Assembly: GCA_051942245.1 (NCBI GenBank)
Contig: JAVECL010000011.1
Span: forward strand, 1 to 64,000
Length of the DNA: 64,000 nucleotides
Direction of reading: 5' to 3'
Origin: Trypethelium eluteriae
Taxonomy: Eukaryota
The notes under the pieces were generated by a model. It saw only the letters and a program-made list of their open reading frames with translations. It did not search any database and was not told where the DNA came from. Below, piece by piece: positions 4,464 through 30,151 of the stretch; the first letter of the stretch is position 1; every line of letters begins with the position of its first letter. A program made the position numbers and the translations under genes.

Positions 4464-5903
4464 TCAATTGCTCCCTCTGTTTGTACTCGTACAGTTGATA
4501 TTCGTCAATAGACTCTCATCCACATCCCCACATGTGAACTCATCCGTGACTCCAGTCGGCGTCGTCACGTCGACCCCATTGACCGTGATATTGCTGCACA
4601 CACTTTCGCTCGAGCAGACCACGTATCCGCTAATTGGGTCGTATTTCTTACTTGTAGTCCCAGTAACACCAGACATCAGAATATTGCTAATGGTGAGGTT
4701 TGAAGGGTACTCGTTGCAAAGAGTCAGGTTCGACTGTCCGTAGCACTGCGTCACTTCGATAGCATAATCGACATTGGTGATATGTATTGTGTCGTACGTG
4801 ACATTGTTGACCATGCCGGTACCGCCACCGCCTTGCAGGTCACCAGAGAGCTCAGCGGGAGAGCCAGGCCAAACTTTGATGCGCGCACCATCCGTGGCAT
4901 TGCTCATGGAGATATTGTAGACGTACACGTTCTCCACAATATCAGTCTCGCCAACGTACTGGCCGAGAGAGCCAACACTGATTCCGTGACTACCGTTGCA
5001 ATGCAGGTTTTGGACGAGCATGTCGGTGCTGTTTGGTTTGAACGAAACGCAGTCATCGCCGTTGTTGATAGTACTGTTCTGGATAATGACATTGCTACTC
5101 CGGTAGCTGAGATGTCGCGTCAGTGAACAGCGCATCCATTATCATCAGAGCCACTCACGTATCCCATCCGTCCGTATTCTTAGCCGTGTTATTGCTCTTG
5201 CTGAACCCACTGATGCTTATTCCCGAGAAAAGCACGTCCGTACTATTGGCGACAAAGTTGTAGTATTCCGGGCTGTATCTCAAGTTCAAGTTTGTAAAGG
5301 ACCCAGTATGGAGGCCGATCGTTCCGAGCAGCACTGGGCGCAAGATGTAGATGTTTTGAGCGTAAAGGTCGTACCACACCTGACCGTTACCATCGATAGT
5401 GCCGCCTCCATAAAAGTTCACGTCGTTGCCACCAAGCTGCCAGAACGTGGTGACGTTCTGAAAAATTTGGCGGAAGGAATTAGCTTGCCAGTAGTCGGTG
5501 TCGTTGGTGAATTGGAGATAACCCTGCAATTCTACATAAGGGTCAGCGTTTTATCACTTAGTCATTCGTTCAATGTAACGTGCATACCAATGTCAATTTG
5601 GTTCAAGAACGTCAAGTTGAGCGCCGTTCCAATAACATATTTCGACTGTGCGGGCAAAAGGACATGGCCACCGTTGTTGCATTGATGTAGCGCATCTAGA
5701 AAGTACTGCGAGTCATCCGTAACGCTGTCGTTGTGACTCTGCACCACGCATGTCTTGTTCCTTGCGGGGCTCTCTGGAAGAGGTCTGTTTGGCTGCTTCG
5801 GTGCGATCTCAAGGCTTGGCCTGCCAATGCTGTGCGGGACCTGAGGTTGCAGAATAGCCGCTTCTGAAATGGCAGCAAAAGTCAAAAGCCAGTTGAGGAA
5901 CAT
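4464..5903 (-). CDS. Secreted exopolygalacturonase, glycoside hydrolase family 28 (PgxB-like), 3 exons
   Basis: Signal peptide [18 protein letters not shown]28 motifs [25 protein letters not shown] across ORF pieces 5562-5903, 5155-5529, 4464-5135 separated by GT-AG introns. Confidence 0.92.
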
Positions 5904-28244: not shown

Positions 28245-30151
28245 TCAGGAGTACAACTTTTTGTCGAAGCTATGCAATCCATGCACATTCCCCTCCGCCT
28301 GCGCGCTCACAGTCCTCAACTCAAACCGTACCTCTCCATCCAGTACTCCCTTCCTCAACTCAGCCAGACTCTTGACCCCAATGTCCTGCAGGCTGTGCTG
28401 CACCCCAGACATCAAGTACGGCACAAACTTCGTCACTGAACCCCGATCCAGTACACTCCCAGACACACCCTGCGCCACAAGCAACCGATCCCCCTCCGAG
28501 AAATACCTCGCCGTGCCCGCATTCCCTGCCTTAGCATCTTGCTTCGCCGCCCCCGGCCCGCCGGCCTTCCGATCCTCCATAGCATCAATAGACCCCATCC
28601 CACGATACGCCTTAACCAGCTGGCCCTCACGACTGACAAAATACTGTCCAGGACTCTCCGTGGTGCCCGCCAGCAAGCCCCCCATCATGACCGTGCTGGC
28701 GCCCAACGCCAGCCCCTTGACGATATGGCCAACATTCTGGATGCCGCCGTCCGCAATACACGGGACGCCGAAGCGAGCCGCGAACTCCGCGGCGCCGAAG
28801 ACCGACGCCGCCTGCGGCCGGCCGACCGCCATGACCTCCTGCGTGATGCACGCCGAGCCGGAGCCCATGCCGATGCGGAGGCCGTCGGCGCCGGCGGCGA
28901 TGAGGGAGGCGGCCTGGGTGCGGGTGACGACGTTGCCGGCGATGACGTCGAGGGCCGGGTGGGCCGCCTTGATGTGCTCGATCATGCGGATCTGGAAGAT
29001 AGAGTTGCCTTGGGAGGAGTCGAGGACGACGATGTCGAGACCGGCGTCGACGAGCTTCTGGAGGCGGTCTTTGTCTGCGTCGCGGGTGCCGATGGCGGCG
29101 GCAGCGATGAGCTGTTTGGAGTGGGGAAGCTTGGAGGCGAGTGGGTAGTGGAGGTTTTTCATGAGGTCGGAGCGGGAGAGGAGGGAGATAAGGTTGTCGG
29201 AGGAGTCGACGATGGGGAGCTTGCCCTTTTTGGAGCGGCGGAGGATTTCGTTGGCGTCGGCAAGGGAGACGCCGGTGGAGGCGGTGACGAGGTCGGTGGA
29301 CATGACGGCGGTGACGGGGTCGGAGGCTTTGTCGTGGAACTGGATGTCTCGTGTGGTGATGATGCCGACGAGTTTAGAATGGAGAGTACCGTTCTCTTTA
29401 GAGGGAAGCACGTTAGCCACTACCAAGTGGTTTCTGCAGTGAAATAATGCAAAAGAAGGTTACTATCTCAGAAATACCACTACAGTCACTCCTCAACGCG
29501 ATTGATCGCTGCGGATGAACGAAAGTTATTTTTGTTTTTATTCATCATATATAAATTCAAGGAACAACGGAACTTAATTTTAGAATGTGGCTTACCTGTG
29601 ACTGGGAAGCCACCGAAACCCCATTTCTCCTTAAGTGCCTTTGCTTCTCCAACCGTGGTATTGGGTGAGATGACTACGGGGTCAAGAATGAAGCCATTTT
29701 CGTAGCGCTTGACTTTGCGGACCATTTCTGCCTGATCTTCTGCAGAACAGTTATGGTGGATGACACCAAGACCTCCAAGAAGTGCCATATGAATAGCCAT
29801 GTTGTGCTCAGTCACAGTGTCCATGGGCGAGGAGATAAAGGGAGTCTTGAGTGAAATACGCTTGGTAACTGGCGTATCCGTGTTCACATCGGAAGCTGGA
29901 AAGCCTGCATCATCTGTGAGAAAGATTCCGTCAACAGGAGGAAGAGGCCTACCAATGAAGCCGGGAAGTATTAGGAAGTCATTGTAAGTCAGGCCGCCAT
30001 GAGTCTTCGAGTCGAGAAGGGCCCTCACATTGAGACCATCTCGCTCTGGATATTCTTCCAGTACTTTCAAAGCCTGGGTGAAATCCAGTGCTTTACCCTC
30101 CTGAATCAAGGGCGCCGAAGCCTCCATGCTGTCACCGTTAACGATTGGCAT
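28245..30151 (-). CDS. imdA: Inosine-5'-monophosphate dehydrogenase (IMPDH) with CBS pair
   Basis: [21 protein letters not shown], catalytic [34 protein letters not shown]; introns 29905-29952 and 29396-29595. Confidence 0.97.
29464..29553 (-). ncRNA. snR54: Intronic box C/D snoRNA, snR54-like
   Basis: C box ATGATGA (29542-29548), D box CTGA (29468-29471), guide TAACTTTCGTTCA (29516-29528) complementary to conserved 18S GAACGAAAGUUA, internal GCGAT-CA-ATCGC stem and C'-like TGAGGA; yeast snR54 is hosted in the intron of the IMPDH gene IMD4. Confidence 0.88.

Follow-up and report, generated by a model that had tools for sequence, protein, structure and literature searches.

The 64-kb window analysed here is the whole 64,000-nt stretch of Trypethelium eluteriae contig JAVECL010000011.1 (assembly GCA_051942245.1). 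Its minus strand encodes, at positions 28245-30150, a gene for IMP dehydrogenase (IMPDH), and the second intron of this gene contains a box C/D small nucleolar RNA (snoRNA; 29463..29553). By sequence comparison the snoRNA is an orthologue of yeast snR54 and of Neurospora crassa CD49 (Nc CD49); besides its guide to 18S rRNA (guide 1), it carries next to box D a second element perfectly complementary to large subunit (LSU) rRNA (guide 2). All features described below lie on the minus strand. Exon 2 of the host gene (29596..29904; reading frame FPASDV...GFPVT) is preceded by an intron 1 of 48 nt and codes for protein 85-92% identical to that of 80 fungal IMPDH loci. Intron 2 (29396..29595, 200 nt) starts with GTAAGC, has a branch site CTAAC at 29416-29412, ends with AAAG and is followed by exon 3; splicing it out restores the protein reading frame across the junction. 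By these coordinates, the snoRNA's 3' terminus is situated 50 nt upstream of the branch A, and 67 nt separate it from the 3' splice site.

The boxes typical of the class can be read directly from the sequence: box C, AUGAUGA (29542..29548; RUGAUGA type), is near the 5' end of the element and box D, CUGA (29468..29471), is near its 3' end. Between them follow, from 5' to 3', guide 1 (the D' guide, TAACTTTCGTTC, 12 nt, 29517..29528), antisense to 18S GAACGAAAGUUA; a variant box D', CCGC (29511..29514), which aligns with CUGA of the Rfam snR54 consensus; a D'-C' hairpin, GCGA-UCAA-UCGC (29498..29509); a variant box C', UGAGGA (29490..29495); and guide 2 (the D guide, GTAGTGGTATTT, 12 nt, 29472..29483), antisense to LSU AAAUACCACUAC in the L1 stalk. 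An antisense element of at least 10 nt ending next to a D or D' box is thus present twice: guide 1 offers 12 bp and ends 2 nt before D', and guide 2 offers 12 bp and adjoins D. Every snoRNA element that the original prediction claimed in intron 2 is present on the minus strand where it was placed. The GCGAT/ATCGC stem proposed there does exist as a hairpin but is limited to 4 bp, as the 5-bp form leaves a 2-nt loop.

Relatives of the locus were collected by scanning metagenome contigs with the exon 2 protein; among 478 pattern matches, 318 encode relatives, and the best 80 (85-92% identity) were kept. An intron occupies the position of intron 2 in 77 of these 80 IMPDH loci and is missing in three. 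In 75 of the 80 loci, the intron right after exon 2 contains the same box C/D snoRNA, whose guide core reads A[AC]TTTCGTTC; the five loci without a counted snoRNA are the three with no intron (L070, L078 and L089), one that ends 22 nt into the intron (L087) and one that ends within the element (L093). When 56 distinct homologues are aligned, some columns are invariant, namely in box C (GAT), in the 18S guide, in D' and in C' (the G..GA columns). In the same alignment, all four pairs of the D'-C' hairpin show compensatory changes, and 95.2% of the cells are paired versus at most 54% with slid partners.

A covariance model built from the 56 distinct homologues with the window left out (model R1; its E-values are only roughly calibrated) has one match in the 64-kb window, at 29461-29554, with 66.4 bits and E=2e-13. 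Rfam models at gathering thresholds had no match anywhere in the window. At relaxed thresholds two families aligned with the element from end to end: plant snoR23 (37.4 bits, E=0.0039, gathering threshold 70), the best Rfam match, and yeast snR54 (27.8 bits, E=0.057, gathering threshold 50). Because of the snoRNA shared by 75 of the 80 loci, the covarying hairpin and the sole R1 match, we identify the intron 2 element, on comparative grounds, as an orthologue of the fungal IMPDH-intron snoRNA snR54/Nc CD49, ordinary and ancient in itself. The claim that an IMPDH intron houses a snoRNA of the snR54 type, like the IMD4 intron of yeast, is borne out. In the Infernal/Rfam search that had been suggested along with it, snR54 and snoR23 remained below gathering, and it is the homologue model R1 that recognizes the element.

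Two groups of relatives deserve separate mention. In the three loci lacking the intron (L070, L078 and L089) exon 2 is continuous with exon 3, and the counterpart of snR54 must be encoded at another place or have disappeared. In ten loci (L080, L081, L083, L085, L086, L091, L098, L110, L114 and L120) box C reads AUGAUUA and there is no CUGA box D; these loci share instead a conserved ATCTTCAACCCTATGA, after which a good TTTC/GAAA terminal stem comes. This arrangement implies a D box of AUGA type in the group and a conserved spacer, in which no rRNA match reaches 10 nt.

Matches to rRNA were evaluated against a complete fungal rDNA unit, L153, whose small subunit (SSU), 5.8S and LSU genes were confirmed by Rfam. 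The unit originates from a contaminant contig of a prokaryote assembly; the contig is filed under a bacterial metagenome-assembled genome and represents eukaryotic contamination of that assembly. Its LSU gene contains a group I intron (4954-5296 of the unit; Rfam Intron_gpI, 109.5 bits). Copies of 18S rDNA were located with the 12-mer of guide 1; a 13-mer pattern including the unpaired A gave no match.

Guide 1 is a perfect 12-mer antisense to SSU positions 971-982 of unit L153, and its 13th base, A, is unpaired with 18S. Counted from CCGC, position 5 is the second of the two As in GAAC, with the duplex as drawn for the D' guide of Nc CD49; guide 1 is thereby predicted to direct 2'-O-methylation (Am) at the equivalent of yeast A974 and N. 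crassa A971. The core of this guide is conserved in all 75 snoRNA-bearing homologues. Among the same 75, the D' box takes the form CCGC in 42, CCAA in 16 and CCGT in five, and the canonical CTGA is seen in only five. The original prediction had regarded D' of the window snoRNA as decayed and had considered that the LSU guide could now be the main function. Neither idea is supported: CCGC is the commonest form of D' in the family, N. crassa CD49 has CCAU, the C'/D' motif of yeast snR54 is non-canonical as well, and with guide 1 conserved throughout the homologues there is no sign of a fading 18S function.

Guide 2 adjoins box D without a gap, at the end of a C'-D spacer of 18 nt. It has one perfect 12-nt antisense site in unit L153, located in LSU, and the match grows to 13 nt with the C of box D; the predicted perfect complementarity to a conserved LSU sequence in the L1 stalk is thus confirmed at this length. 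A match of this kind is rare. Random 12-mers of the snoRNA composition were antisense to L153 rRNA in 566 of 2,000,000 cases (2.8e-4), and the 12-mers of the window itself in 42 of 127,978, which puts the chance rate at 2.8e-4 to 3.3e-4 per 12-mer. Among the 1,629 window 12-mers adjacent to CTGA two are antisense to rRNA, guide 2 being one of them. The window has 27 maximal rRNA matches of at least 12 nt; apart from guide 2 they are scattered and have no box context. The 12-mer of guide 2 occurs once in the window, with zero copies expected in shuffles.

The predicted duplex of guide 2 (-15.0 kcal/mol) is comparable with that of the conserved guide 1 (-14.0 kcal/mol), and N. crassa guide duplexes without mismatch span 10-17 bp (Liu 2009, PMC2780460). 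We also determined the perfect matches abutting CTGA (offset 0-2) in 55 distinct homologue sequences, seven of which (11 loci) have no CTGA in range. Matches of 12-13 nt were found in one other conserved guide type; the rest were at most 10 nt, mostly shorter than 8 nt. The C'-D spacer differs in length as well: the 18 nt of the window compare with 17 nt in the other group that bears a guide and with about 10-14 nt in the nearest guide-less relatives. As a sequence feature guide 2 is real; its match exceeds chance by far, and its placement is canonical.

Counting five positions from box D (the D+5 rule) leads, as in the original prediction, to the A of AAAU[A]CC. Since GAAATACCAC is identical to positions 2168-2177 of E. 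coli K-12 rrlH, guide 2 predicts Am at the equivalent of E. coli A2173; the whole 12-nt target AAAUACCACUAC corresponds to E. coli 2169-2180. The longer sequence GAAATACCACTAC was present in 23 of 25 eukaryotic LSU fragments (contaminants, among the matches listed), a count in which the last three bases alone are tested freely, as the search pattern required GAAATACCAC for the first 10 nt. The source of such fragments is itself of note: at least 25 contigs filed as bacterial or archaeal genomes (L045-L069) carry eukaryotic LSU rDNA, a contamination of the public prokaryote assemblies concerned.

At this site the eukaryotic LSU consensus of Rfam has the sequence UGAAAUACCACuaC, with AAAUA in an unpaired loop and CCACu forming the 3' strand of a helix; by this consensus structure the guide 2 duplex would span the 3' strand of H77 together with the loop that precedes this helix. 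From the helix numbering we take the target to lie in H76-78, the L1 stalk, and its loop presumably contacts the elbow of the E-site tRNA. The name L1 stalk is given to H77-78 in the literature. In eight of nine fungal-like LSUs, the U that Nc CD2/snR66 targets (N. crassa U2379, yeast U2417) is followed 71 nt further 3' by the predicted A, which by spacing is about A2450 of N. crassa and A2488 of yeast. A position near the human U79/U30 sites (28S A3804/A3809) was ruled out by the N. crassa numbering, in which Am2288 precedes the estimated A2450 by 162 nt.

Methylated sites are documented in human 28S rRNA at Gm4020 (SNORD102) and Cm4032 (SNORD75). We take these two sites to flank the same GAAAUACCACUAC stretch; if so, small nucleolar ribonucleoproteins (snoRNPs) act here in vertebrates. 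SNORD102 and SNORD75 belong to unrelated snoRNA families and modify G and C, whereas an A is predicted for guide 2. Searching Rfam with the LSU target stretch on both strands returned the LSU model only and no snoRNA family. A literature search with the 12-mer returned 28S probes and primers and no methylation data, and the literature found for the L1 stalk together with snoRNA or methylation contained nothing on the target site.

The closest known systems share the scaffold of the window snoRNA and differ in what precedes box D. Available excerpts of the yeast literature place snR54 in the IMD4 intron and describe its C'/D' motif as non-canonical, with no Snu13 binding in vitro; the yeast modification table assigns it to 18S Am974. 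S. cerevisiae snR54 resembles the window snoRNA in its IMPDH intron host, box C/D structure, D' guide to the same 18S sequence and non-canonical C'/D'. Unlike the window snoRNA, the Rfam consensus of snR54 has no LSU-complementary element before box D, in agreement with the original prediction. Plant snoR23/U59 and human SNORD59 have the same 18S guide as the window snoRNA; the consensus of snoR23 also differs from it in having no LSU guide before box D.

A second guide is, however, present in Nc CD49. This intronic snoRNA, coded as experimentally detected and listed with homologues that include snR54, U59 and U59A/B (Liu 2009 Table 1, PMC2780460), is a double guide: it addresses 18S-Am971 via D' and 26S-Um2682 via the D guide ACACUGAAAAUC (Liu 2009, PMC2780460). 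Like the window snoRNA, it has a degenerate D' (CCAU) and a D duplex of 12 bp without mismatch to LSU. The targets differ: 26S-Um2682 equals yeast Um2724, which is normally guided by snR67, and the guide 2 target is ~230 nt upstream of the Nc CD49 target GAUUUUCAGUGU (2913 versus 3148 in the reference LSU). A D guide of the Nc CD49 type to GAUUUUCAGUGU is not found in the window snoRNA. According to the accessible part of Canzler 2018 (PMC5824354), single-guide families gain lineage-specific targets on the 'non-functional' antisense element, and snR54 (CD_49) has the D target 25S-3941 in Sordariales; the accessible main text names no target near the L1-stalk site, and Supplemental Table S14 may list more. 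With Nc CD49 and the work of Canzler 2018 in print, the dual-guide concept is not new. Lineage-specific second guides of the snR54 family are already published, and only the target of guide 2 is new.

A third type of D guide was observed among the relatives. Eleven of the 75 homologues (L094, L096, L097, L102, L113, L127, L137, L138, L140, L143 and L145), otherwise diverged, have a conserved (T)GGAGATTTCTGT in front of CUGA, and a degenerate 10-nt version of it is found in L139. Its perfect antisense match, 12-13 nt long, is with LSU ACAGAAAUCUCC(A); the A to which it points, 46 nt 5' of the equivalent of yeast U2724, is listed in neither the yeast nor the N. crassa table. Yeast U2724 itself was considered as the target of the GGAGATTTCTGT guide and rejected, as the N. 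crassa supplement shows another guide for the U2724 site. Two further groups of homologues have conserved C'-D spacers before CUGA, AGCAACTTGCTTAACGT and CTAGACTCCTTGT (L106, L107, L111 and L116-L119; L121, L126, L129, L130 and L133). No rRNA match of these spacers reaches 10 nt; they may guide non-rRNA targets.

The conservation of both guides across IMPDH introns, which had been put forward as a check, thus splits: guide 1 is universal among the snoRNA-bearing homologues, and guide 2 is seen in none of the 80 related loci. The nearest relatives (L072-L074, L084, L088, L123 and L132) have GAG-N-ATGTAT(TTC) before box D, in variable register, and the window spacer GAGTGACTGTAGTGGTATTT resembles theirs with about seven bases added. 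This similarity suggests that guide 2 may have grown from a short seed. These relatives are only ~84% identical to the window in exon 2 DNA and ~73% in exon 3. Relatives were also sought via the antisense open reading frame that spans the snoRNA; the one match covered only exon 2 antisense and was uninformative on guide 2. A 15-mer scan of viral contigs gave 44 loci, none of them rDNA by three universal motifs.

The reading that we prefer combines these observations as follows. Once splicing has taken place, IMPDH intron 2 would give rise to the free snoRNA, which would join fibrillarin in an snoRNP; its D' guide would direct the ancient 18S 2'-O-methylation at the yeast Am974 equivalent. The C'-D spacer would have grown in this lineage into a second canonical guide, which forms 12 perfect base pairs with L1-stalk LSU AAAUACCACUAC and, by the D+5 rule, would methylate the A of AAAU[A]CC. 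That the element is an snR54 orthologue which accumulates as RNA and whose guide 2 methylates the LSU A seems to us rather probable; the methylation function is put as a prediction because guide 2 occurs in none of the 80 related loci. We give about equal weight to the case for and against a recent birth of the guide, in which an idle C'-D spacer with a seed of 6-7 nt would have become a 12-nt guide in one Pezizomycotina lineage and added a 2'-O-methyl group to the L1-stalk loop.

Several observations weigh against the preferred reading. Not even GTGGTATTT is present in any of the 80 related loci; guide 2 is a singleton in the sample, since the nearest relatives are no closer than ~84% identity in exon 2 DNA. 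These relatives share GTATTT in the spacer, so about half of the match could be inherited rather than selected. The yeast modification table has nothing between Um2421 and Gm2619, and the N. crassa table has no guide between Um2383 and Um2682 (Liu 2009, PMC2780460); with the site unmodified in yeast and no guide listed for N. crassa, the modification is therefore not needed in those fungi. Finally, the terminal stem around boxes C and D consists of just 3-4 A-U pairs (+0.3 kcal/mol). Among 56 distinct flank pairs, one of which is that of the window, its stem energy takes rank 43; weak as it is, it remains inside the family range, with 13 of the 55 other entries weaker.

The singleton status of guide 2, the inherited GTATTT (which leaves fewer bases to be matched by chance) and a modification that yeast and N. 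crassa do without are also what one would expect of a single-guide snR54 orthologue with an accidental 12-nt LSU match in a fast-evolving spacer and no consequential methylation. The C'-D spacer is indeed the most variable part of the snR54 family, and in the majority of homologues it holds no rRNA match as long as 8 nt. We nevertheless consider such an accident unlikely, as the chance of ~3e-4 per 12-mer has to be combined with the exact functional register beside a canonical D box; even if the 6-nt seed was inherited, the remaining six bases give about 2e-4. Moreover, each other match of at least 12 nt in the snR54 family is a conserved guide. From engineered yeast snoRNAs it is known that perfect pairing over 12 bp beside box D is normally enough for methylation, which also argues against a match of no consequence. 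A pairing that matters might still work otherwise than by methylation: guide 2 could be mainly a folding or timing contact on the L1 stalk of pre-25S rRNA that keeps H77 open until the snoRNP is released, with the methyl mark absent or incidental. The duplex would cover the H77 3' strand and the loop before H77 in the Rfam LSU consensus structure, the head of the L1 stalk folds late in pre-60S maturation, and some C/D snoRNAs, such as U14 and snR190, act by pairing alone; all three points favour a folding role. The geometry, however, is that of a standard methylation guide, with guide 2 adjoining box D and position 5 falling on an A, and there is no sign in the sequence of the longer or bipartite pairing typical of chaperone snoRNAs. 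We regard a mainly structural role as improbable.

The weak terminal stem and the Rfam family matches below gathering could also point to a decaying relic, an intron segment that is not processed to a stable snoRNA. Boxes C, D, C' and D' and guide 1 nevertheless fit the family consensus (66.4 bits with model R1), the D'-C' hairpin is intact in a family where this hairpin covaries, and guide 1 is perfect, in line with the 18S Am974 guide of all 75 homologues. A relic is thus very improbable in our estimate, and a functional snoRNA with a second, methylation-guiding element stays the reading we favour. If guide 2 works, the L1 stalk of this fungus would bear an rRNA methylation absent from model fungi, and the snR54 scaffold would be a compact example of new targets arising on the unused half of a single-guide snoRNA. 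Counting the two other D guides of the family, the snR54 scaffold would then have acquired a second target three times independently; at least three different second targets occur in different lineages. The general understanding of box C/D snoRNAs would be unchanged, as lineage-specific second guides, one of them in the snR54 family, have been described before.

One more feature of intron 2 concerns the guide 2 region. The 7-mer GTAGTGG of guide 2 (29472-29484) is repeated 50-60 nt downstream in the intron, within GGTAGTGGCTAAC. The downstream copy (29412-29430) overlaps the branch site and forms part of a small CCAC/GTGG hairpin; the recurrence could be due to chance or be a trace of local duplication.

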